From: a virus
Length of the DNA stretch: 64,000 nt
Reading direction: 5' to 3' (one strand)
IMG/VR virus record: IMGVR_UViG_3300003797_000002
The notes beneath the pieces were generated by a model that worked only from the letters and a program-made list of their open reading frames with translations, searched no databases and was not told the DNA's origin. Position 1 is the first letter of the stretch, and each line of letters begins with the position of its first letter. A program made the translations under genes and the position numbers. Of the stretch, positions 979-57,505 are shown one piece after another.

Positions 979-1635
979 ATGAAGCTAAGTGAAAATACCC
1001 TTACTGTCCTCAAGAACTTTTCGTCAATCAATCACGGCATTCTGTTTCGCTCTGGTAATATGATTCGCACTATCTCACCACAAAAGACTGTGATGGCGAG
1101 TGCAGAAGTTCAAGAAACCTTTGACCGTGACTTTGCAATCTATGATCTATCAAAGTTTCTTGGTGCGCTATTGCTGTTTGATCAGCCAGAAATCCACTTC
1201 GGTGAAACACAGGCTACTATTGCCTCAGACAAGCGTAAGCTAGTATACACCTACGCTGATCCATCAACGTTCGTTACTTCACCCGCAAAGGATCTAAACT
1301 TCCCTGCTGCTGAAATCAATCTATCTATCACCCAAGAAGACCTCACTAAGGTTCAAAAGGCTGCTGGTGTTCTTGGTCTTCCAGAAACAATCATCTCTGG
1401 TGATGGTGAAAACATCTATCTATCGGCTGATGATAGCAAGAATCCTTCGAAGGACAAGTACAGCATCGTGGTAGGTTCTACCAATCTTGTATTCAATGCT
1501 ATCTTTAAGAATGAAAATCTTAAGCTTCTTCCTAATGACTATGATGTATCAATCTCAAAGGCGGGCATCTCAAAGTTTACTGCGACTGGTGTTACATACT
1601 TCATTGCGACAGAGAAAGATTCTTCCTTCAGTTAA
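979..1635 (+). CDS. 45: DNA polymerase sliding clamp (T4 gp45 family)
   Basis: N-terminus MKLSENTLTVLKNFSSINHGI..FAIYDLSKFLG closely parallels T4 gp45 MKLSKDTTALLKNFATINSGI..VAIYDLNGFLG. Confidence 0.9.
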   Translation: MKLSENTLTVLKNFSSINHGILFRSGNMIRTISPQKTVMASAEVQETFDRDFAIYDLSKFLGALLLFDQPEIHFGETQATIASDKRKLVYTYADPSTFVTSPAKDLNFPAAEINLSITQEDLTKVQKAAGVLGLPETIISGDGENIYLSADDSKNPSKDKYSIVVGSTNLVFNAIFKNENLKLLPNDYDVSISKAGISKFTATGVTYFIATEKDSSFS

Positions 1636-2180
1636 CCTCTTCTGGTTCTTTCTCGCAAACGATAGAAATGTGGATATTTTGGGTTGTCCAATCTTTTTCT
1701 TAGATTGATACCAGGATAAGCTTTTTCTGCTTCACCTACAGAAGAATATTGGACACCTTCACACATTACTGGACAACTGTTAGATTTCTTGATCGATTCG
1801 AAGAACTTCTGTGATTGTTTTTTACCTAGCATTCCATATGTAGCATAAGATTCTTTAGATTTGTTTTTATGATACACTTCTATTGATTTTATGAAAGTGA
1901 GAGATTTAGATGAATCGCCACCATCTCCACCTTTAGTCATATTATATTCGGGCTGAAGTTCTTTGATCCAGAATATCTCCCTCTCATTTAGTTGAGAAGT
2001 TTCTTCGATCATTGCTACAGAAAAACTATCGAATCCATATTTTCTCATGGCTCTATATAGATGTGTATTTCCTGTTTTGTGATGATAGAAGTGTCTACGA
2101 AATCTCTCTTCGATAGACTTTGATGTTTTGCCAATGTATGTTTTACCATTGACTTTGTTCGTGATCTTATATATAAACAT
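1632..2180 (-). mobile_element. free-standing GIY-YIG homing endonuclease (Seg/I-TevI-like)
   Basis: MFIYKITNKVNGKTYIGKT..RFRRH..YNMTKGG GIY-YIG motifs; opposite strand between clamp and clamp-loader genes; 3' end overlaps gp45 stop (TTAA). Confidence 0.85.
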
Positions 2181-2247
2181 AGCTGATGCTCCGTAAAAGC
2201 GTTAGAGTAGGTAGATGCTGTTACATCGTGACCTACATCTACTTATA
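2181..2247 (-). promoter_or_regulatory. conserved homing-endonuclease leader (TATAAGTA late-promoter-like box, hairpin, TCTAACGCT, GGAGCATCAGCTATG)
   Basis: Minus-strand TATAAGTA at 2240-2247. Hairpin GTAGGT(2207-2212)/ACCTAC(2231-2236). About 70 nt alignable with 16512-16581 and 43821-43889. Confidence 0.55.
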
Positions 2248-13108: not shown

Positions 13109-13185
13109 TCCCTAGGGGCCCTATCGGTAGGGGCACAAGACTGTTAATCTTGTCGTTATAGGTTCGAATCCTATCTAGGGAGCCA
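13109..13185 (+). tRNA. tRNA-Asn (GTT)
   Basis: Acceptor TCCCTAG/CTAGGGA, D stem GCCC/GGGC, anticodon stem CAAGA/TCTTG with loop CTGTTAA, T arm ATAGG-TTCGAAT-CCTAT, encoded CCA. Confidence 0.85.
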
Positions 13186-15426: not shown

Positions 15427-15500
15427 GCCGATATAGTATAGTGGTAATACAGTGGATTTGTAACCCTCTGACAGGAGTTCGATTCTTCTTATCGGCACCA
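15427..15500 (+). tRNA. tRNA, probably Thr (TGT)
   Basis: Acceptor GCCGATA/TATCGGC, D arm GTAT-AGTGGTA-ATAC, T arm AGGAG-TTCGATT-CTTCT, CCA encoded. Anticodon loop TTTGTAA, but its stem has two mismatches. Confidence 0.65.
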
Positions 15501-15610: not shown

Positions 15611-15687
15611 CTACCATTAGGAAAGTCTGGTAATCCGCCTGGTTTGGGGCCAGGAGATCGGGAGTTCAAATCTCTCATGGTAGACCA
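15611..15687 (+). tRNA. tRNA-Pro (TGG)
   Basis: Acceptor CTACCAT/ATGGTAG, anticodon stem CCTGG/CCAGG with loop TTTGGGG, T arm GGGAG-TTCAAAT-CTCTC, discriminator A + CCA. Confidence 0.85.
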
Positions 15688-15705: not shown

Positions 15706-15936
15706 ATGAAAATGAAAATATTCAAAGCTTTCAAAGAATCGACAACAGAGACACCAGAGAACATTCAGATTGAAGTTCTAGGTGTTGATGATAGCTGGCG
15801 TAGAGTTGAAGGCGGTGTTCCTAATCGTGCGCAGTCTATTGCTCGTGCATTAGAGTATACCAAAAAGAGATATCCTAAGAACCGAGTTCGTGCTGTTGGA
15901 CAGAAAACGGGCAGGTTCTACGATCTTTTGCCTTGA
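15706..15936 (+). CDS. hypothetical protein
   Basis: ORF only; 3' end overlapped convergently by the endonuclease gene. Confidence 0.5.
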   Translation: MKMKIFKAFKESTTETPENIQIEVLGVDDSWRRVEGGVPNRAQSIARALEYTKKRYPKNRVRAVGQKTGRFYDLLP

Positions 15937-16511
15937 TGTTTATTTTTTAATGTTTCGCTTATTTTTTTCTTAGTCTCTTCACTTGGAACTTTACCAAGTT
16001 GAGCAAGTCTCATTTTTTCTTTTGTTTCAGTTGATCTTTTTTTACCTACATTTTTCTTGTGTAGACTAGTTAAACGATCTATTTCTAGTTGAGTTTTGTT
16101 TCTGTTTTTGTGTGAATCTGAAAGTTTTTTTATAGTATCAGATGATCGTTTCTTCCCCTTGTTCGCAAGTCCCATTTTGATTCTCGATTCTTCAGTTAAC
16201 CCCGATCTTGGTCCTGTGTGATATTTACATCCCACATTTCCAGGTTTAGCGTCTTCCTGTACAAGATTTGCCCAAGATTTAGATTCGACAATATCATTTT
16301 CTTGTGAGAACGAAATAGCATATGCCGTAGCGTCTTCTTGGTTATAGAAGGTGTGTACTTCTAAAGTTATAGGTGTTATGTTATGCGATTTTATGTGTCT
16401 GATCCAATACTGACCAGATCCTTTATATCTGAAAGGATTTTTTGTTTTAGTGTAACCAAAATATTTCATATCACAATGACCACATTGCTTCACGTATAGA
16501 TAAATAACCAT
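15918..16511 (-). mobile_element. free-standing GIY-YIG-type homing endonuclease with NUMOD3-like repeats
   Basis: IYLYVKQC..KYFGYT..YKGSG N-terminal module. C-terminal repeats SEESRIKMGLANKGK / STETKEKMRLAQLGK / SEETKKKISETLK. Sits inside the tRNA cluster as segB does in T4. Confidence 0.75.
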
Positions 16512-16581
16512 AGCTGATGCTCCTGTTTAGCGTTAGAGTCTGTGGATATTAGTAGTATCGTGACAGACAATATTACTTATA
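16512..16581 (-). promoter_or_regulatory. conserved homing-endonuclease leader
   Basis: Minus-strand TATAAGTA at 16574-81, hairpin GTCTGT(16538-43)/ACAGAC(16563-68), TCTAACGCT, GGAGCATCAGCTATG. Confidence 0.55.
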
Positions 16582-31221: not shown

Positions 31222-31384
31222 GATTGGTGATAGGGTGTATGCCACGCGAGATATTGGACTTGTTAACGAAAATCAAGTAGGAACAGTGGTTGATGTTCTG
31301 GAAGATTATCTTCCCTTTCCTTATATCGTAGATTTTGGTGCGGAAGATATGCCATGCAAAGAAAAGGAGATTGCACTTGATTAG
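31214..31384 (+). CDS. small protein with MFKIGDRV SH3-like module
   Basis: ATG 31214; paralogue of 30859. Confidence 0.5.
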   Translation: MFKIGDRVYATRDIGLVNENQVGTVVDVLEDYLPFPYIVDFGAEDMPCKEKEIALD

Positions 31385-32444
31385 GTTTCCCTCTATTGAA
31401 CAGTTCCGTTCCACGATTCATCATGTCAAGAACCATACGCGGTATGCTGGCAAGGATGCTGATGGCAATGCTGTGTATGATCATTCTCGCCCGCTTCCTA
31501 CGCTGAAGTTTCGTGGTACTGTCAAGCTGCATGGTACCAACGCGGGTATCGTGTATGACGTTGCCACCGACACTATTAGCTATCAGTCGCGTGAACGTGA
31601 ACTGTCGCTGACTTCTGACAATGCTGGCTTCATGCTTTGGGCTAAGAGTCACGAATCAATCTTTATTCAGTATTTTGAAGCATGTTTCCACAACGGTCTT
31701 ATGGAACAGTTTGCTCCGCGCAAGACCAATAAAATGCCAACAAAACTAGTTTTGTTTGGTGAATGGTGCGGTGGTAATATCCAAAAGGGTGTTGCTCTTA
31801 CTGGTCTGGACAAGATGTTTGTTGTGTTTGCATATAAAGAAATGTATGCAGATGATGATTCTGTCTGGGCAAACATGCCAAGTTTCATTGAAGTGAGTCA
31901 ACGGGCTGTCCCTAATATTTACTGGATCAATGAGTTTCCTACCTACGAAATCGACATTGACTTCAACTTTCCTGAAATCGCTCAGAACAAGATGATCGAA
32001 ATCACGGAAGCTGTTGAAGCCGAATGCCCTGTCGGTAAGCACTTTGGTGTTAGCGGCATTGGCGAAGGTGTTGTGTGGACTTGCGTCACTCCTGGTTATA
32101 ACGACTCGGGCACTTGGTTTAAAGTCAAGGGCGAAAAGCATTCTTCTTCGAAGGTCAAGACTCTTGCTGCTGTTGATGTTGAAGCAGTAGAGAACATGAA
32201 GGCTTTCATCGAATCAGTTGTCACTGAATCGCGTCTTGAACAGGGTCTAGACAATCTGGTTCGCGAACAACTGCTGCCCTTTGATATGAAGTCTCTCGGC
32301 GATTTTATCCGTTGGGTCTACAATGATGTCGTCAAGGAAGAAGCTGATACCATCGTTGCGAATCAGATTGATACCAAGAAGCTGGGATCTGCTATTGCGA
32401 ATGTAGCACGCCCATGGTATATCCAGCGGTATAATGCCTCTTGA
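31377..32444 (+). CDS. rnlB: RNA ligase 2-like (Rnl2 family)
   Basis: Motif I KLHGTN (T4 Rnl2 KIHGTN), FGEWCGGNIQKGV (motif III), GEGVVW (IV), WFKVKGEKH (V). TTG 31377 follows AAGGAG. Confidence 0.8.
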   Translation: MIRFPSIEQFRSTIHHVKNHTRYAGKDADGNAVYDHSRPLPTLKFRGTVKLHGTNAGIVYDVATDTISYQSRERELSLTSDNAGFMLWAKSHESIFIQYFEACFHNGLMEQFAPRKTNKMPTKLVLFGEWCGGNIQKGVALTGLDKMFVVFAYKEMYADDDSVWANMPSFIEVSQRAVPNIYWINEFPTYEIDIDFNFPEIAQNKMIEITEAVEAECPVGKHFGVSGIGEGVVWTCVTPGYNDSGTWFKVKGEKHSSSKVKTLAAVDVEAVENMKAFIESVVTESRLEQGLDNLVREQLLPFDMKSLGDFIRWVYNDVVKEEADTIVANQIDTKKLGSAIANVARPWYIQRYNAS

Positions 32445-32500
32445 CATTTAATACGAATCGTGTATGGTGAGAATGTAGCAGAGTGAAAGATTGAACAATG
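32441..32500 (+). promoter_or_regulatory. early promoter + leader cassette
   Basis: TTGACA 32441-46 (contains the Rnl2 TGA), ..ACGAATCGTG, TATGGT 32463-68, GAGAATGTAGCAGAGTGAAAG, ATG 32498. Confidence 0.7.
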
Positions 32501-33751
32501 AACTATGAGTTTCCTCACATCACCAACATCGCTGATGTGCTGCCTGCTATTGAAGGTCGTTACGAGTTCGTTGTGGCTGAGAAGGAAGGCTACACGGTCA
32601 TCAACTACAACGTGATGATGTCCGATACGTTTCCTGATGTGCCAGTTGATATGAAGTGGCAGGAGCCTCTCAATCGTATTGCTTTTGGTGAGTACGATCC
32701 CACCGCAGCAATCCGTCGTGAATGTCGTGGTATCATCTTTGATACTGAAACTGGTTATATCATTCGTCGCCCGTTCCATAAGTTCTTCAATGTGAACGAG
32801 CGTGAGGAGACGCAGGATCATGTCATTGATCTGTCGCGCCCTCATGCTATCCTTGAGAAGCTGGATGGTTCCATGATCGCTCCGTTCATTGTGAATGGTC
32901 AAATGATCTGGGGCACGAAGATGGGTGCTACCGACGTGGCAAAGCCTGTTGAGGAGTTCGTCAAGAACAAACCTCAGTATGAGAAGTTTGCTACTTCCTG
33001 CATTGCCAACGGTGTAACTCCTATCTTTGAATGGTGTTCGCGTAAGCAGCGCATTGTTCTGGACTACAAGGAAGATCAACTGATCCTCACCGCTCTTCGC
33101 GATATGCATACTGGCGAATATATCAAACTGTTCGGTGATGGTCGTATCAACCGATTGCATGTTGAAGATTGGGATATCCCTGTCGTCCGTGCATTTGAGT
33201 TCACTAACTATGGTGAACAGAATGATATGAAGGCTTTCCTTGAATACGTCCACGATCTGGAAGACCTTGAAGGGTTCGTGGTTCGTTTTGATGATGGTCA
33301 TATGTTGAAGTTGAAGTGCCATTGGTATCTCCAGATTCACAAGGCGAAGGAAGCTATCCTGCAAGATCGCAACATCGTTGAACTGATTCTGGAAGAAAAG
33401 CTGGATGACATCAAGGCTCATCTGCCTGCCGAAGATCGTGATCGGCTGACTCAGTTTGAGAGCAATATTCATTTTGATATTGCCCGTCGCGTAAGGCTGA
33501 TTGGTATGAAGCTGGAATATCTCCGTGAGCGTGGTATTGATCGTAAAACGTTTGCAATCGATCCGAAGCACAGTGTTGGTGTTGATGCTTTCATTCGTCC
33601 TATTATTTTCAAGAACTTTGATAACGACATTATCAGTGGTCTGAAGATTGGCGAAGACGTTCGCAAAACGATCCGTAATAACCTTGGTCGCACGGCAAAG
33701 TATGAAGCGATCCGTGATGCTTGGTTTCCGGGAGTGAAGTACAATGACTGA
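32498..33751 (+). CDS. rnlA: RNA ligase 1-like (T4 RnlA family)
   Basis: ECRGIIFD, HKFFNVNE, motif I EKLDGSM, FEWCSRKQRIVLDY, EGFVVRFDDGHMLKLKCHWY, all collinear with T4 Rnl1. Confidence 0.9.
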   Translation: MNYEFPHITNIADVLPAIEGRYEFVVAEKEGYTVINYNVMMSDTFPDVPVDMKWQEPLNRIAFGEYDPTAAIRRECRGIIFDTETGYIIRRPFHKFFNVNEREETQDHVIDLSRPHAILEKLDGSMIAPFIVNGQMIWGTKMGATDVAKPVEEFVKNKPQYEKFATSCIANGVTPIFEWCSRKQRIVLDYKEDQLILTALRDMHTGEYIKLFGDGRINRLHVEDWDIPVVRAFEFTNYGEQNDMKAFLEYVHDLEDLEGFVVRFDDGHMLKLKCHWYLQIHKAKEAILQDRNIVELILEEKLDDIKAHLPAEDRDRLTQFESNIHFDIARRVRLIGMKLEYLRERGIDRKTFAIDPKHSVGVDAFIRPIIFKNFDNDIISGLKIGEDVRKTIRNNLGRTAKYEAIRDAWFPGVKYND

Positions 33752-33887
33752 TCGTGAACTTTTGGAAATGGCGCTTGATGACCTTGATTGGGCAAAGGCC
33801 ATGCTTGAGTTAGACGGCACCGATTCGCACGAATGCCTTGATGATGTGATTGCTGCCATCAAGCAGCGGTTGGAAAATAACGATTGA
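33744..33887 (+). CDS. small acidic hypothetical protein (47 aa)
   Basis: ATGACTGA overlap with the rnlA stop; TGA stop inside the next TTGACA. Confidence 0.45.
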   Translation: MTDRELLEMALDDLDWAKAMLELDGTDSHECLDDVIAAIKQRLENND

Positions 33888-33946
33888 CATTTTTTCATAA
33901 TCAGCTATATTGAAAATGTAGCAGATAGATGGAGTGATTCGAGATG
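33884..33946 (+). promoter_or_regulatory. early promoter + leader cassette
   Basis: TTGACA 33884-89, 16 nt, TATATT 33906-11, GAAAATGTAGCAGATAGATGGAGTGATTCGAGATG. Confidence 0.7.
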
Positions 33947-34429
33947 ACTAAGCGTATTATCATGCTCGTTGGTGTTCCTGCTTCTGGCAAGTCCACTTGG
34001 ATTGAAAAAGAGTTTCAAGGCGAATGTGTTGTTATCTCTACCGATAACATTGTTGAAGAAATCGCAGAAGCCGCAGGCAAGACCTATAATGATGTTTGGG
34101 CTAACAGCATCAAAGCTGCTGAACGTATCATGTGGGAAGAGTTTGATCGTGCTGTGGAAACAAAGCAGTATCCCATTGTTATTGATCGTACCAACCTGAA
34201 CGCTAAGGTTCGTAAGAAGTTCTTTGATCGTCTTAAGAACTTTCATCCTAATCATGGTTATGAGATTGAAGCGGTTGTGTTTCCTACTCCTGAGAAAGAA
34301 GAATGGGAACGTAGGTTGAACAGTCGCCCTGGCAAAAACATTCCCCAAACTGTTCTTGACAGTATGGTACAATCTATGCAACAGCCAACATTGTCTGAGG
34401 GATTTTCTAAAATCGATATTTCTTCTTGA
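33944..34429 (+). CDS. polynucleotide 5'-kinase (kinase domain only, T4 Pnkp N-domain-like)
   Basis: P-loop GVPASGKSTW, VIDRTNL, RLNSRPGKNIP..VLDSM parallel to T4 Pnkp residues 1-150; no phosphatase domain. Confidence 0.75.
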   Translation: MTKRIIMLVGVPASGKSTWIEKEFQGECVVISTDNIVEEIAEAAGKTYNDVWANSIKAAERIMWEEFDRAVETKQYPIVIDRTNLNAKVRKKFFDRLKNFHPNHGYEIEAVVFPTPEKEEWERRLNSRPGKNIPQTVLDSMVQSMQQPTLSEGFSKIDISS

Positions 34430-42731: not shown

Positions 42732-43168
42732 CAACACTGATAGATTCTTTGAAAGTAGCATTAGCAGATGCTTTTGCGTTTTATTTAAAGTCACACAACT
42801 ATCACTTTAATGTAATAGGAAACAACTTCTATGAATATCACACATTTCTAGAAAAGATATACACTCAAGTATTCGAAGAGTTTGATTCTATCGGTGAAAA
42901 GATCAGAACACTAAACGAATACACACCAGCATCCTTTACTCGGTTTATAGAGTTAACTAATATTGATGATGCACTTACTGTTCCTTCTAGCCAAAGAATG
43001 TTTGAAACACTGCACGAAGATAATCTAATACTTACACAATCTCTAGAAACTGCATATCATGCGGCTGAACTTGCTGGTGAAATAGGAATCAGCAACTTCC
43101 TTCAAGATTTGGTTGACAAACACAATAAACTATCTTGGATGTTAAAGGCAACCATATCTACGATCTGA
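42728..43168 (+). CDS. dps: Dps/ferritin-like DNA-protection protein
   Basis: LADAFAFYLKSHNYHFNVIGNNFYEYHTFLEKIY..EFDSIGEKIR typical Dps ferroxidase-site pattern. Confidence 0.75.
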   Translation: MTTLIDSLKVALADAFAFYLKSHNYHFNVIGNNFYEYHTFLEKIYTQVFEEFDSIGEKIRTLNEYTPASFTRFIELTNIDDALTVPSSQRMFETLHEDNLILTQSLETAYHAAELAGEIGISNFLQDLVDKHNKLSWMLKATISTI

Positions 43169-43820
43169 TCTTCATTTTACACTTATCGCCATGATGTTTT
43201 GCAAAGTTACCAGGATCGAGATAGTTTAAACAATGAGGACATTCTTTTTTCTTCAGAAACGGATGAGTTCCATCTTTGAATCTTTTACGGTTCATTTCAC
43301 CACCCAATAAATGGTGTGTTCCATTTTCTACTCTTTTTTTATTAGATTGTCTCTGTATTTCACCACCTAGAAATGGATGTGTGCCTTCTTCTACTCTTTT
43401 GTTGTTTATATCGCTTCCTAGAAAGTGGTGAGTTCCTTCTTCTATACGTTTTCTTTGAACTTCACCACCTAAAAAGTTGTGTGTTCCATTTTGAATCTTT
43501 TCTTTATTCCATCTTTTATGATTTTCTTTATCCAAAAAAGGATGTGTACCATCTTCAAGCCTTTTTGTTTGAACAAGCTTGGCCAAGTTAGACTTTTCTT
43601 CTGCACTAATGGACATTCTCTGTGAGATACGTAAACAGGCTGCCCAATCGTTTTGAGAATAATGTATGTTATAGTGTTCTTGTATCGTTATGCAAACTAA
43701 GTTGGAAATATCGTTGTTCTTACGATTGCCGTCTATATGATGAATCTCGTATGATCTACCATTCTCATCTTTAGGAATGGGACCGAAATGACGAGTCCAG
43801 ATTCTGCGATAAATATTCAT
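43158..43820 (-). mobile_element. free-standing HNH homing endonuclease with six tandem GTHxFL repeats
   Basis: YEIHHIDGNRKNNDISNL..H HNH core. Repeats DGTHPFL, NGTHNFLGG, EGTHHFLGS, EGTHPFLGG, NGTHHLLGG, DGTHPFL. 3' end overlaps the dps stop. Confidence 0.8.
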
Positions 43821-43889
43821 GCTGATGCTCCTTATAAGCGTTAGAGTCTGTGGATATTTCCAGTATCGTGACAGACATCAATACTTATA
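43821..43889 (-). promoter_or_regulatory. conserved homing-endonuclease leader
   Basis: Minus-strand TATAAGTA at 43882-89, hairpin GTCTGT(43846-51)/ACAGAC(43871-76), TCTAACGCT, GGAGCATCAGCATG. Confidence 0.55.
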
Positions 43890-43909: not shown

Positions 43910-43917
43910 TATAAATA
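43910..43917 (+). promoter_or_regulatory. T4-type late promoter motif TATAAATA
   Basis: Exact motif 28 nt before ATG 43945; divergent from the minus-strand motif at 43882-89. Confidence 0.5.
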
Positions 43918-43944: not shown

Positions 43945-45570
43945 ATGCCAATCAATAAAGATACACCAACATCTGAAATCATTCATGACTTTGTGAAATC
44001 AAAGAATCCAAAGTTCGCGGGCAAGAGTAAGGCCGAGCGAGTGAAACAGGCTGTTGCTGCATCTTATAAGGTTCATGGTGAAAAAGTTGAAGAATCAAAC
44101 AACACACCATATGTGAGAAAGAGCAAGACAAATCCAAATGCTTGGGATGCAATGAACAAGCACGGTAAGGTAAAGACGTTTGGTGCAGAGTTTAAAGATT
44201 CTGCTATGCGTCATGCTGGCATTTCAGAAGATATTGAGCAGGTCGATGAAGAAAAGCCAAAGAAAGATTTCATGTCTTTATTTCCAGCCAGAACTGATGG
44301 TCCAGGAAAGTTTACAATCTCTGATATTGAAAATATCACAAAAGTGAAATCTTCTAAAAATAACATCAAGAAAGAAGAAACCGAACTAGACGAAGCACGT
44401 GGTCGACCAAAGAAGGATCTTGGCTACACTGTCAATCCTAACAACAAAGAAAAGTTGTATCATGACAATCCAGAGCATATGGATCGCATTCGCAGACTTC
44501 GCAAGAATGGTGTCCTACCGCCAGAGCAACATGCGCCATCAGAACACATCATCAACAGACTAAGACAAGCTTCTACCAATCAGACTGGTGGTCAAGACAT
44601 CAAGTATGAGAATGGTAAGACACATCACGTTTCAGGCTCTATGGCATCAAAGACATTAGATCACTATAATAGTCTACCAAAGCCTGCGGATAAAGAAGCA
44701 TTTCAAGCCAAGATTCGTAAATCACATGAAGAACACAAATCAGCACTAGGAGAACAAGTAATGTCCGAAGAAACAAAAGCGCCACTTTGGGGTGTAAGTT
44801 CATCAAACAAGTTCCGTACACTTGATGAAAAGTTGGATCCTACAAAATGGGGCATTAAAGGCGCACTAGCAGGCGGCGCACTAGGTGCAGTTGCTGGTGG
44901 TATGGCTGCGGCGCCGCATGTACATCATGATCCAATGGCCATCAAAGGCGGAGCAACTCTAGGTGCTGCTGGTGGCGCTGTTGCAGGTGGTACTGCTGGT
45001 ACTGCACTTGCTAAAGGCATCAACAAGATTGGTGAGATTGGCAATAAACTCAAAAAGAAAGTTACCGCCAAAGAAGAAGCCGAACTAGAAGAAAAGAAGC
45101 TAATCGGCAAGCAGAAGAAGCTTGACAAGAATCACAATGATAAGCTAGACGCTGAAGACTTCAAGATGCTTCGTAAAGAAGAGTTGATGGATCATTTCGC
45201 AGATGCACTTGAAGAAGGTATCTTTGACGAGTCAGATATTGATCGTCTAGTTGAAAATGAACTAGAAGAAATGGACAAATCTCCAGAAACCAAGTTTGAT
45301 CGTGCAGGACAAGATCGTGCTAAAGATAAAACAGCAACTCCAATCGGTGCAAAGAAGTTTGCCAAAGATGCCGAAGTTGCAATGAATAAGTCTTTCAGTA
45401 AAGAAGAAGCCATCCGCGAATCAGTAGTAACACCTTATACTGCTGCTTCGCGCTATCATGCTGTCGAATCTGCTGTTCGTGATATCATGTCACAAAATCA
45501 GAATCTAAAGAAGATCGCTGAAGAAGAAACATTTCGTAGAAACAATCCAGGTCTATTCAAGGATAAATAA
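43945..45570 (+). CDS. large charged protein with AT-hook and glycine-zipper segment
   Basis: EARGRPKKD AT-hook; GALAGGALGAVAGGMAAA..GGATLGAAGGAVAGGTAGTA segment. Confidence 0.5.
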   Translation: MPINKDTPTSEIIHDFVKSKNPKFAGKSKAERVKQAVAASYKVHGEKVEESNNTPYVRKSKTNPNAWDAMNKHGKVKTFGAEFKDSAMRHAGISEDIEQVDEEKPKKDFMSLFPARTDGPGKFTISDIENITKVKSSKNNIKKEETELDEARGRPKKDLGYTVNPNNKEKLYHDNPEHMDRIRRLRKNGVLPPEQHAPSEHIINRLRQASTNQTGGQDIKYENGKTHHVSGSMASKTLDHYNSLPKPADKEAFQAKIRKSHEEHKSALGEQVMSEETKAPLWGVSSSNKFRTLDEKLDPTKWGIKGALAGGALGAVAGGMAAAPHVHHDPMAIKGGATLGAAGGAVAGGTAGTALAKGINKIGEIGNKLKKKVTAKEEAELEEKKLIGKQKKLDKNHNDKLDAEDFKMLRKEELMDHFADALEEGIFDESDIDRLVENELEEMDKSPETKFDRAGQDRAKDKTATPIGAKKFAKDAEVAMNKSFSKEEAIRESVVTPYTAASRYHAVESAVRDIMSQNQNLKKIAEEETFRRNNPGLFKDK

Positions 45571-54729: not shown

Positions 54730-56997
54730 ATGATCCATGTTTCTAAACGCGATGGTAGTAAAGAACCTCTAGACCTAAACAAGTTCCATCGTGTATGTCA
54801 GTTTGCGTGTGAAGGGCTTTCTGGTGTATCTGTATCAGAACTTGAAATCAAAACAAAGATTCAGTTTCACAATGGCATCACGTCCAAGGACATTCAAGAA
54901 ACGCTGATCAAAGCCGCGGCTGATCTTATCTCTGAAGAAACACCTAACTACCAATACGTTGCTGGTCGTCTAATCAACTATCAGTTGCGTAAGGAAGTTT
55001 ATGGTCGATATGATCCCAAGCCTTTATTGCAACATCATGATAGAGTTGAAAGTCTAGGTTATTATGATAGAAATCTTTCAAAGGTGTATTCTTGGGATGA
55101 ATGGGCAGAACTTGGTGATTATATCGACCATGACCGTGACAATCTGCTTACCTATGCTGCAATGGAGCAGTTTCGTGGTAAGTATCTGATTCGCAATCGT
55201 GTCACAGGAAAGTTCTACGAAACGCCTCAGATGGCATTCATGTTGATCGCCATGACATTGTTTCAAAACTATAAAACAGACCGTATCAAGTGGGTAAAGG
55301 AACTATACGATGCTATCTCTACATTTGACATTAGCTTGCCTACTCCTATTATGGCTGGAGTTCGTTCTCCTCAGCGTCAGTTTAGTTCTTGCGTGCTTAT
55401 TGAGTCGGATGATTCTCTCGATTCTATCAACGCTACTTCCTCTGCAATCGTTAAGTACGTTTCTCAGAAGGCTGGAATCGGAATTGGTGGTGGCCTCATT
55501 AGGGCTATTGGCTCTCCCATTCGCGGTGGCGACGCTGTTCATACTGGCGTTGTGTCATTTTGGAAGCATTTTCAAAGCGCTGTTAAGTCGTGTTCGCAAG
55601 GCGGCGTAAGAGGTGGTGCAGCAACCATCTACTATCCTCTTTGGCATCTTGAAGTAGAAGACCTTTTAGTTCTTAAAAATAACAAGGGCACAGAAGACAA
55701 TCGCATTCGGCATATGGACTATGGTGTCCAGTTCAACAAGGTGATGTATGAAAGACTTCTATCTGGTGGTAACATCACCCTCTTCTCGCCTTCTGATGTG
55801 CCGGATCTCTACAAATGTTTCTTCACAAACACCGACGAGTTCCGAACCCTCTATGAGAAGTATGAACGAAACACCAAAATCAGAAAGAAAACTGTATCTG
55901 CAATTGACCTTTTTTCGTCCTTCATGCAAGAGCGAAAAGATACAGGACGAATCTATCTGATGAACGTTGACCATGCCAATGATCATGGTTCGTTTGTCAA
56001 GGAAAAAGCACCAATCAAAATGAGCAATCTCTGCTGTGAGATTACTTTGCCAACAATACCACTAAAGGACATCAATGATGAAGAAGGTGAGATTTCTCTC
56101 TGCACTCTTGCGGCTATCAATTGGGGCAAAATCAAAAAGCCTAGCGATTTTGAGAAGCCTTGTACAATTGCTGTTAGATGCCTTGACGCTCTTCTGGATT
56201 ATCAGTCTTATCCCGTTCGTGCTGCCTATTTGGGGACTATGGCACGTAGGCCGTTGGGTGTGGGCATCATCAATTTCGCTTATTGGTTGGCTCGTAATGA
56301 TAGCACTTATTCCAGCCCTAATCTTGGTCTTATTCATAGTTACGCTGAAGCGTGGTCTTACTATCTTATTAAGGCATCTGTCGATCTTGCAGAAGAGTTT
56401 GGCAAGTGTGGTAAGTCGGATGAGACAAAATATGGTCTAGGCATTATGCCAGTTGATACATACAAGAAAGATGTTGACGATCTAGTAGAACCATGCTATA
56501 ATATGGATTGGGATCTACTAAAAGATAGATCCGAAATGTATGGCATTCGCAACTCAACTTTGATGGCTCTTATGCCTGCTGAAACTTCTGCACAGATTAG
56601 CAACTCTACTAATGGTATCGAACCGCCTCGTGCATTGGTATCAATCAAGCAGAGTAAAGATGGTGTTCTAAAGCAGGTTGTTCCTGATATCAAGAAACTA
56701 AAGAATAAGTATGAGTTGCTATGGGACCAGAAGTCACCAGAGGGTTATCTGAAGATCATGGCAGTTCTACAGAAGTTTGTCGATCAAGCTATCTCCGTGA
56801 ACACCTCCTACAATCCAGCCCACTATCCAGAGGGTAAGATTCCTCTATCAGAGATGATCGGGCACTTGCTGATGTTTTATAAACTCGGAGGCAAAAACCT
56901 ATACTATTTCAACACCAATGATCAGTCTGGTGAGATTGAAGATACACTAGCACCAGGTGAAGTTGATCAGGAAGATTGTGATAGTTGTAAAATCTGA
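54730..56997 (+). CDS. nrdA: ribonucleotide reductase class Ia alpha subunit
   Basis: ATP-cone start VSKRDGSKEPLDLNKF, SSCVLI, NLCCEI active-site motifs. Confidence 0.95.
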   Translation: MIHVSKRDGSKEPLDLNKFHRVCQFACEGLSGVSVSELEIKTKIQFHNGITSKDIQETLIKAAADLISEETPNYQYVAGRLINYQLRKEVYGRYDPKPLLQHHDRVESLGYYDRNLSKVYSWDEWAELGDYIDHDRDNLLTYAAMEQFRGKYLIRNRVTGKFYETPQMAFMLIAMTLFQNYKTDRIKWVKELYDAISTFDISLPTPIMAGVRSPQRQFSSCVLIESDDSLDSINATSSAIVKYVSQKAGIGIGGGLIRAIGSPIRGGDAVHTGVVSFWKHFQSAVKSCSQGGVRGGAATIYYPLWHLEVEDLLVLKNNKGTEDNRIRHMDYGVQFNKVMYERLLSGGNITLFSPSDVPDLYKCFFTNTDEFRTLYEKYERNTKIRKKTVSAIDLFSSFMQERKDTGRIYLMNVDHANDHGSFVKEKAPIKMSNLCCEITLPTIPLKDINDEEGEISLCTLAAINWGKIKKPSDFEKPCTIAVRCLDALLDYQSYPVRAAYLGTMARRPLGVGIINFAYWLARNDSTYSSPNLGLIHSYAEAWSYYLIKASVDLAEEFGKCGKSDETKYGLGIMPVDTYKKDVDDLVEPCYNMDWDLLKDRSEMYGIRNSTLMALMPAETSAQISNSTNGIEPPRALVSIKQSKDGVLKQVVPDIKKLKNKYELLWDQKSPEGYLKIMAVLQKFVDQAISVNTSYNPAHYPEGKIPLSEMIGHLLMFYKLGGKNLYYFNTNDQSGEIEDTLAPGEVDQEDCDSCKI

Positions 56998-57052
56998 TGT
57001 TGGATACTGGAATATCGCGAGTCACATCTTATTTATATAAAGGAGTTTTGTT

Positions 57053-57505
57053 ATGAAGTATTTCATGGATTGTGAATATAACGGCTTCGGAGGGCAGCTA
57101 CTTAGTCTAGCTTTGGTACGTGAAGACGGGCATAGCCTATATATCAAATATGAGACAATCCAAGAGATTGATCCATGGGTTGCTATAAATGTTATGCCCG
57201 TCATTATTAATGTACCCAAAGGCGTTAAGATGCAAGTTGCTTCTCTATTGGACAATCGCGGCGCACATATGATCCAAGAGTTCTTCGGTGATGATCCATG
57301 CCCTGTGATTACTACAGATTGGCCAGATGACATCAAGTATCTTTGTCAGGCAATGATTACTGGTCCAGGTGAGATGATTGCCGTTCCTAGGATCATCTTT
57401 GATATGGTGCGCGTTGATGCTTATCCAACTACACTACCTGGTGCTATTCGACACAATGCTTGGTGGGATGCTTCTGCACTAAAGCACATGTTTGAAAGTG
57501 TCTAG
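57053..57505 (+). CDS. DEDD 3'-5' exo(ribo)nuclease, Rv2179c-like
   Basis: MKYFMDCEYNGFGGQLLSLALVREDG matches the M.YF.DTEF..G....LISIG.V.EDG family N-terminus. Confidence 0.55.
   Translation: MKYFMDCEYNGFGGQLLSLALVREDGHSLYIKYETIQEIDPWVAINVMPVIINVPKGVKMQVASLLDNRGAHMIQEFFGDDPCPVITTDWPDDIKYLCQAMITGPGEMIAVPRIIFDMVRVDAYPTTLPGAIRHNAWWDASALKHMFESV

Follow-up and report, generated by a model that had tools for sequence, protein, structure and literature searches.

A Shared Leader Precedes Three Homing Endonuclease Genes

A leader that precedes free-standing homing endonuclease genes was analysed in a 64,000-nt stretch of a T4-like phage (IMG/VR virus record IMGVR_UViG_3300003797_000002), the whole of which is referred to here as the window. 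The same leader stands before all three minus-strand endonuclease genes and ends at the ATG at 43820, 16511 and 2180, respectively. On the gene strand, its parts come in the order TATAAGTA, a spacer of 3-5 nt, a hairpin (P1), TCTAACGCT, 5 variable nt, GGAGCATCAGC, 0-1 nt and ATG. The core TCTAACGCT-N5-GGAGCATCAGC (25 positions) occurs exactly three times in the window, while none was expected from 100 shuffles, and the three gene-leader pairs proposed in an earlier note on this DNA were all recovered in place. Over 96 alignment columns, the pairwise identity of the copies is 83%. The features are listed below, with P1' and P2' denoting the hairpins on the antisense strand.

43158..43820, minus strand: HNH_3 homing endonuclease gene (Pfam/PHROG family matches)
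43809..43815, plus strand: backward late-promoter-like box ATAAATA of the HNH cassette, in codons 2-4 of the HNH gene
43821..43831, minus strand: Shine-Dalgarno GGAG of the HNH gene with the conserved spacer CATCAGC; the complement GCUG is the predicted 5′ end of an antisense RNA
43822..43844, plus strand: hairpin P2' of the HNH cassette, an 8-bp helix CUGAUGCU/AGCGUUAG capped by the 7-nt loop CCUUAUA, two of its pairs being conserved G·U
43846..43876, plus strand: hairpin P1/P1' of the HNH cassette, with a 6-bp outer stem, a G-C or G·U pair between two invariant bulged G, an inner stem of 4-5 bp and a variable loop
43882..43889, minus strand: forward late-promoter-like box TATAAGTA of the HNH cassette (a sequence match; mostly ATAAATA at the homologous position in relatives)
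15918..16511, minus strand: homing endonuclease gene (Pfam NUMOD3 only; phrog_314; N-terminus like GIY-YIG Seg-type proteins)
16500..16581, minus strand: second full cassette (box 16574-16581, P1 16538-16568, P2 region 16514-16536, backward box 16500-16506)
1632..2180, minus strand: GIY-YIG homing endonuclease gene, between gp45 and gp44
2169..2247, minus strand: third full cassette (box 2240-2247, P1 2207-2236, P2 region 2183-2205, backward box degenerate, ATATATA, 2169-2175)

The earlier note had described two GIY-YIG genes and one HNH gene. This holds for the GIY-YIG gene at 1632-2180 and for the gene at 43158-43820, which is HNH_3, while the gene at 15918-16511 matched nothing in Pfam other than NUMOD3. 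That these are the only minus-strand genes of the window is plausible, since the other large minus-strand open reading frames (ORFs) are shadows of real plus-strand genes. The box TATAAGTA, present ahead of every copy, occurs eight times in the window against 1.8 expected, and general use of this G variant of the late-promoter box in the window phage is suggested. Five of the eight occurrences are on the plus strand (13092, 14787, 19204, 24279 and 58788), and the window also has eight plus-strand TATAAATA.

The Leader Is Widespread and Specific for Nuclease Genes

The exact 25-nt core was found in at least 118 IMG/VR contigs, making at least 126 copies with those of the window included. All counts given for relatives rest on loci among these contigs. 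With a covariance model trained on 90 distinct leaders, 22 further copies with an altered core were recovered in the first 100 contigs and two lower-scoring ones in the other 18. On the strand opposite to a full cassette, and ~290 nt away from it, there is one weak partial copy (L058:5540-5625, plus strand, 24.7 bits), which carries TCTAACGCTTTAAAGGAGC and a 19-codon ORF and is possibly a rearranged fragment.

Downstream of the leader, 86 distinct complete ORFs (at least 100 aa) were collected, and almost all of them belong to nuclease or homing-endonuclease families. The Pfam matches were NUMOD3 (30), HNH (11), GIY-YIG (7), HNH_3 (5), SegE-type GIY-YIG (4), HNH_5 (4) and TnsA-like (2), and the PHROG matches were phrog_314 (49) and phrog_655 (24) plus several other families. 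At least four nuclease families (GIY-YIG, HNH, HNH_3 and TnsA/PD-(D/E)XK-like) are thus found behind the leader, in line with the claim that unrelated endonucleases share it. In three loci (L028:1725-2660, L025 and L084), the cassette-driven ORFs carry N-terminal C2H2-type zinc fingers and a TnsA-like/PD-(D/E)XK nuclease domain. These ORFs also match PHROG "head closure" families (phrog_218, E = 3e-59), and they may represent a homing-endonuclease lineage that arose from a gp4-like head-completion nuclease.

Proteins in common with the window were found in only 43 of 118 loci, and their median identity was 47%. The leader is exact while the shared proteins differ to this extent, indicating that it is far better conserved than the phages that carry it. 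The carriers form a clade of T4-like phages that are uncultured and apparently from freshwater. Neither an 8-kb megablast query nor a blastn query with the consensus leader had a real match among 50,697 phage records, and no close cultured relative came up. Among bacterial and archaeal genomes, only four contigs contained the core, all from freshwater metagenome-assembled genomes (MAGs) and probably mis-binned phage DNA. One of the four, L170 (NZ_JBBAKG010000003.1), is a 148-kb contig of a Haliscomenobacter sp. MAG (freshwater Bacteroidota), which could be a mis-binned whole phage genome or a hint at the host. When the whole window was scanned with Rfam 15 at the gathering threshold, three tRNAs were found and the leader was unmatched; a scan of a 301-nt region with E up to 10 gave chance-level matches only. 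A literature search by sequence string returned unrelated primers only. No description of the sequence or of an antisense-structured endonuclease leader was found in the literature, where a large catalogue of candidate phage RNA structures (PMC10690425) may include the motif unnamed.

The relationship between leader and ORF was seen in four closely related contigs. L010, L033 and L042 are 98-99% identical to L009 and have an intact leader but no endonuclease ORF. The difference is a precise 648-bp indel (L009:3811-4458), by which the ORF is gone from codon 3 to ~10 nt before its stop, leaving a mini-ORF of four codons; its junctions showed no obvious microhomology. Several other leaders stand ahead of decayed ORFs of 4-56 codons. 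Because the leader is exact in diverged phages, precedes at least four nuclease families and survives precise loss of the ORF, it appears to be a unit separable from the ORF, as the earlier note had supposed in calling it transferable. The cassette is probably also a patch for ORF exchange.

Two Covarying Helices Make Up the Leader

In the window, two copies have the P1 arms GTCTGT/ACAGAC and the third has GTAGGT/ACCTAC, confirming the two compensatory pairs reported earlier. The anatomy of P1 was derived from an alignment of the 90 distinct leaders. The hairpin is bipartite, with a 6-bp outer stem, one further pair, an inner stem of 4-5 bp and a variable loop. In the window, the inner stem has 4 bp and reads GATA/TATC, or GATG/CATC in the third copy. 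The middle pair on the gene strand is G-C in 64 leaders, A-U in 8 and A·C in 18, and it is flanked by two single-base bulges, C33 and C35, which are invariant (90/90) and were not imposed by the search pattern. The CACGAT that had been taken for the start of the loop is therefore not loop: CAC is the conserved internal bulge region, and GATA/TATC forms the further inner stem. Compensatory double changes were found at 11 of 12 pairs of P1. The covariation score was 0.475, compared with 0.146 for shuffles (0 of 500 reached it) and at most 0.066 for slid registers, so the proposal that the hairpin would covary in an alignment with related upstream regions held.

A second helix, P2, in which CTAACGCT pairs with AGCATCAG, was exposed by the altered-core copies. 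In these copies GCT/AGC is replaced by TCT/AGA, GAT/ATC, ATATC/GATAT, TAACT/AGTTA or ACCT/AGGT, and A67T co-occurs with T83A. The two blocks TCTAACGCT and GGAGCATCAGC, which look single-stranded, are both conserved because the P2 helix CUGAUGCU/AGCGUUAG joins them. On the antisense strand, P2' is the complement of TCTAACGCT-N5-GGAGCATCAG. Five of its eight pairs show compensatory changes among the variant copies, and its loop, CCUUNAA across copies, is the complement of the Shine-Dalgarno region.

The Selected Structure Lies on the Antisense Strand

Within the well-aligned pairs, all non-Watson-Crick combinations on the gene strand are A·C or C·A, with zero G·U. Since A·C on one strand is G·U on the other, the selected structure is placed on the antisense strand. 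Over the 1080 cells of P1, 40 G·U wobbles were counted on the antisense strand and none on the sense strand. The bias was 9:0 in loci where the endonuclease gene is co-oriented with both neighbours.

An antisense alignment of 108 copies, 18 of them variants, was then scored. The two-helix structure is paired in 98.4% of cells, compared with 81.8% for shuffles, with 99.7% for P2' and 97.6% for P1', whose deficit lies almost entirely at the loop-closing pair. Double changes occur in 16 of 19 pairs, and all 11 P1' pairs covary. None of 500 shuffles (0.150) reached the covariation score of 0.477. In P2', one wobble position is G·U in 108/108 copies and the other is U·G in 101 and Watson-Crick in the rest. 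Folding energies agree in direction: the antisense strand is the more stable one in 92/92 copies (mean -19.6 vs -14.0 kcal/mol), and the plus strand of the window forms two hairpins in all three copies (-18.4 to -19.1 kcal/mol, z-scores -2.3 to -2.9). Read on the gene strand, P2 is left with no more than 3 contiguous pairs and contains two C·A mismatches.

We conclude with high confidence that a conserved two-helix structure is selected on the antisense strand. The strand-asymmetric tolerance of G·U points to a single-stranded nucleic acid on that strand, most simply RNA. An operator or palindrome in double-stranded DNA was also considered and rejected, since the binding of a protein to a palindrome would treat both strands alike, with no tolerance of G·T confined to one of them. 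Three findings go beyond the earlier note: the P2 helix, the strand of the selected structure and the TATTTAT box described below. That note had suggested structure-gated expression as in T4 intron endonucleases, which does not fit a hairpin that lies wholly between the predicted start and the Shine-Dalgarno sequence and shows A·C but no G·U on the gene strand. Its reading is thus partly supported, being right about a shared, transferable and late element and wrong about the T4-style gate and the strand.

Candidate Late-Promoter Boxes Face Each Other Across the Leader

The T4 late promoter is TATAAATA at about -13 to -6, with the start ~6 nt after it. In relatives, 73 of 92 copies have ATAAATA as the forward box, and in 58 of 92 the box precedes the first G of P1 by 5 nt, in agreement with the late-promoter-like box seen earlier in the window. 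After the core, TATTTAT is found at a fixed distance, past a gap of mostly 4-6 nt that holds the start codon in any of three registers. Its reverse complement is a backward ATAAATA, matched with one mismatch or none in 90 of 92 copies and placed 5-6 nt before GCUG in 73 of 90; GCUG (GCTG) is itself invariant in 108/108 copies. On T4 geometry, both strands appear to share the arrangement of box, N5, G(+1) and hairpin.

TATTTAT is kept across three frames, as nnT-ATT-TAT (M-x-I-Y), ATA-TTT-ATA (M-I-F-I) and TAT-TTA (M-Y-L), and the alternative frames are found even within one HNH family. The box is thus kept at the nucleotide level and not in frame, indicating that the first four codons of unrelated nucleases are set by the cassette.

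A Proposed Antisense RNA Control Cassette

The element would be best explained as a movable cassette that serves the expression and control of free-standing homing endonuclease genes. We see about an even chance that it consists of convergent late promoters around an antisense RNA that regulates the nuclease. This proposal takes up the observed conservation, the two helices with their covariation, the selected strand, the frame-independent backward box and the specificity for nuclease genes. The gene strand would be laid out over ~90 bases as ATAAATA, 5 nt, G(+1) with P1, UCUA, the P2 region with AAGGAG, CAGC, the AUG in the 4-6 nt gap, and UAUUUAU. The backward ATAAATA promoter, its box ~65-75 bp from the forward one, would fire through the leader against the gene. 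The predicted antisense RNA of about 65-75 nt would begin at GCUG, fold into P2' with its anti-Shine-Dalgarno CCUU loop and then into P1' with the two invariant bulged G, and end at a U-rich tract complementary to the forward promoter with its A-rich spacer. It would be fully complementary to the 5′ end, the Shine-Dalgarno sequence and the AUG of the endonuclease mRNA, which is predicted to be only weakly folded over the covered region. Pairing would probably start by loop-loop contact between P2 and P2' and lead to ribosome block and/or duplex cleavage. Convergent transcription would add interference, and the net effect would be low endonuclease synthesis in late infection. Of the 10 nt that follow P1', 5-7 are U in 101 of 108 copies, the tract being interrupted, and P1' averages -10 kcal/mol.

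Several points weigh against this proposal. It is from sequence that we infer the firing of both boxes, the ends of the RNA and the direction of the regulation, namely repression. A simple terminator scan of the window copies called no intrinsic terminator, and with the TATAAGTA variant as their box, these copies have tails poor in U (4-5 U of 10). The backward box of the third window copy is degenerate (ATATATA). The window copies are thus weaker examples of the cassette. Moreover, in a phage-infected cyanobacterial host, an antisense RNA protected its mRNA from RNase E (PMC3113571), and it is conceivable that the antisense effect here is mRNA protection rather than repression. The bases flanking the two boxes also give little help: five of six positions show no significant covariation (p = 0.20-0.78) and the sixth is marginal (p ~0.011), so that two promoters and two complementary RNA segments are not independently told apart. 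Finally, the endonuclease gene opposes both neighbours in 38 of 74 classifiable copies, and where it does so the antisense structure could serve the transcript of the neighbour instead.

This last point leads to a rather unlikely explanation in which it is a neighbouring phage gene whose transcript starts at the opposite-strand promoter and carries the two hairpins at its 5′ end. By inserting backward between two phage genes, a cassette would supply the gene it displaced with a late promoter and with a 5′ structure resistant to nucleases (or an insulator or attenuator), and so minimise the cost of insertion. The neighbour often starts ~10-50 nt past the cassette, as in the window, where gp44 starts 27 nt past the box, and the need of invading endonucleases to respect local promoters has been discussed (PMC2988022). 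However, the same 9:0 asymmetry and the backward box are found in co-oriented loci, where the backward RNA is antisense to a phage gene. The plus-strand TATAAATA that the earlier note had placed back to back with the HNH leader is present at 43910-43917, past the cassette structure, so the gene at 43945 has a canonical promoter sequence of its own after the structure. The U-rich tail after P1' would also oppose read-through. Alternatively, the leader might act on the gene strand, as a 5′ untranslated region in which P1, at the 5′ end of the late mRNA, is a stabiliser or a protein-binding site. In read-through transcripts, AUAAAUA would pair with UAUUUAU (codons 2-4) and close the Shine-Dalgarno sequence and the AUG, so that only late transcripts starting inside would be translated, as for T4 I-TevI, segB and Aeh1 mobE. 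The exact complementarity of the two boxes speaks for this, in 36 of 92 copies they are paired in the minimum-energy fold of the read-through RNA, and a late start as predicted would leave P1 right at the 5′ end. This mode of control is documented for T4, and seg43(25) of Aeromonas phage 25 has a predicted non-sequestering hairpin just upstream of the ribosome-binding site (PMC2988022). We consider this explanation unlikely. P1 does not touch the Shine-Dalgarno sequence, P2 is poorly paired on the gene strand, the wobbles favour the opposite strand by 40:0, the gene strand is the less stable one in every copy, and the flanks of the boxes lack covariation at five of the six positions. Most copies are transcribed against their neighbours, where read-through sense transcripts should be rare. 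Long-range pairing between the box and TATTTAT could be an additional layer.

It could also be argued that the leader is a recombination handle only, kept alike by gene conversion and used as a homology patch for ORF swaps in the manner of the early promoter-stem-loop (PeSL) cassettes of T4-like phages, so that no RNA function is selected. The exact leader in phages whose proteins are ~47% identical would agree with this, as would the cassette-encoded first codons common to unrelated proteins, the identical P1 stems of two window copies, the ORF-less allele that keeps its leader, and the precedent of PeSL elements as promoter and stem-loop cassettes tied to modular shuffling. Conversion, on the other hand, does not yield compensatory double substitutions in 16 of 19 pairs, a 40:0 wobble bias or invariant bulges amid variable stems. 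Such a handle could hold beside an RNA function rather than in place of one, and taken by itself it is very improbable.

Returning to the antisense proposal, the anti-Shine-Dalgarno loop of P2' sits on a stem that is identical in nearly all copies, and for this reason an action in trans was considered. Each cassette would then repress all endonuclease mRNAs with the canonical leader, including those of a co-infecting phage, which we regard as quite unlikely. If true, selfish nucleases would be joined, across the whole family, in a network of "multicopy inhibition" or immunity, and the rare compensated P2 variants would be orthogonal specificity classes that escape repression. Staying in the network or leaving it cleanly would explain both the exact 25-nt core among phages with <50% identical proteins and the paired changes in P2. 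Candidate trans targets in the window were rejected. Matches to GGAGCATCAGC with at most two mismatches number 29 against 14 expected, but nearly all are antisense to coding sequence, and we read them as an effect of codon composition (GCT-GAT-GCT-type codons) rather than as targets.

Comparison With Known Systems

Cis-antisense control is reportedly known from the sar RNA of P22, attributed to Liao, Wu and Susskind in 1987, and from RNA-OUT of IS10, attributed to Simons and Kleckner in 1983. The cassette resembles both in that a candidate promoter within the 5′ portion of the target gene faces backward, on the opposite strand, so that the two promoters would converge, and in a predicted antisense RNA of ~70 nt, rich in stem-loops, over the Shine-Dalgarno sequence and the AUG. 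The secondary structure of the predicted antisense RNA is itself conserved. As in IS10, where one copy can act on others, the target is the DNA-cutting enzyme of the mobile element itself. Unlike these systems, with which it has no sequence relationship, the cassette has T4-type late boxes for both candidate promoters and is common to many unrelated nuclease families across diverged phages.

In the T4 homing endonucleases I-TevI, I-TevII, I-TevIII and segB and in Aeh1 mobE, a hairpin occludes the ribosome-binding site and the late start lies inside the hairpin (PMC2988022). The cassette shares with this type of control a candidate late promoter directly upstream, an RNA structure in the leader and presumably late expression. 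A match to TATAAATA, in the form TATAAGTA in the window, does lie directly upstream of the ORF. However, the hairpin of the cassette lies between the predicted start and the ribosome-binding site, and selection acts on the structure of the opposite strand. P1 does not include the Shine-Dalgarno sequence or the AUG but ends 21 nt before GGAG, and the box is upstream of the whole hairpin, so that the predicted late start is not inside it. A late start within a structure would fit the long-range pairing of the box with TATTTAT, which 36 of 92 minimum-energy folds show but for which the flanking bases give no clear covariation.

The concept of a shared leader is already published. According to Dassa et al. 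(2009; PMC2677866), "fractured gene" endonucleases of two families from ocean metagenomes share leader hairpins, TATAAATA boxes and two conserved motifs, which is the same principle of a common leader for different free-standing endonuclease families. The gp41-1 split-intein loci of that study were found with an intein query (matches of 94% identity). The covariance model had no match in 20 of these loci, a comparison that covers gp41-1 loci only. In contrast to the cassette, the gp41-1 hairpin holds TATAAATA in its loop and lies directly before the ribosome-binding site. For the gp41-1 loci, identity of the two motifs was therefore rejected, as the model is unmatched and the architecture differs.

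In the T4-like cyanophage S-PM2, experiments have revealed an antisense RNA, CfrI, that lies opposite a free-standing homing endonuclease gene (Millard et al. 2010, as presented in PMC2984593). This precedent supports the antisense reading of the cassette. CfrI is ~225 nt long and links the endonuclease gene to psbA, and in that account it is not described as a short conserved leader cassette of several families (PMC2984593). The PeSL cassettes of T4-like phages consist of an early promoter and a terminator-type stem-loop (PMC2839356, PMC4122927). They are similar to the present cassette as short conserved modules of promoter and stem-loop, repeated in the genome, that flank variable genes and have been proposed to serve modular exchange. 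Unlike the cassette, PeSLs flank diverse small ORFs in hyperplastic regions, whereas the cassette has late boxes, two helices, a ribosome-binding site and specificity for nuclease genes. In three scanned regions, no sigma-70-like site was aligned with the promoter box of the cassette, and the stem-loop follows the promoter on the gene strand.

To our knowledge, how phages keep free-standing homing endonucleases harmless is partly understood, and the known T4 devices are individual to each gene. The cassette would be one sequence-recognisable control module for GIY-YIG, HNH, HNH_3 and PD-(D/E)XK-like nucleases across a large clade of uncultured phages. If the antisense RNA is real, homing endonucleases would have their first conserved family of dedicated antisense regulators, and cross-talk and competition between selfish elements would become directly testable. 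The element would then also provide a clean metagenomic tag for endonuclease cassettes and for their empty or decayed sites, and a compact module for late-phase expression and attenuation.

Other Features of the Window

The neighbours of the three endonuclease genes are gp45 (clamp), gp44 (clamp loader), a small ORF and a ferritin/Dps gene. The 3′ ends of the endonuclease genes overlap their convergent neighbours, as had been noted before, by 4 nt for gp45 (TTAA), 19 nt for the ORF at 15706-15936 and 11 nt for the ferritin/Dps gene. One further match to the covariance model was found:

56977..57046, minus strand: degenerate solo remnant of the cassette, between nrdA (54730-56997) and the RNase H gene (57053-57505), which are separated by a 55-nt gap

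This remnant retains a canonical TATAAATA, the 5′ arm GTGACT, the CGC bulge and the inner stem GATAT..TATC, and it has no P2, Shine-Dalgarno sequence or endonuclease ORF. It looks like the scar of a lost endonuclease. The nrd genes are a classic insertion site of endonucleases. The promoter box of the remnant is now directed antisense into nrdA.

Three tRNA genes (13109-13182, 15427-15497 and 15611-15684, plus strand) lie near the second cassette and recall T4 segB, which sits within a tRNA cluster. The DNA polymerase of the window is ~50% identical to those of cyanomyoviruses. At 31335-34429 (plus strand), a cluster resembling an RNA-repair system encodes an RNA ligase (PF09414), a T4 Rnl1-type RNA ligase and an AAA_33/zeta-toxin-like kinase. 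Opposite the Rnl1 gene, a "shadow" frame (32363-33898) is open for 511 codons and has no family match.

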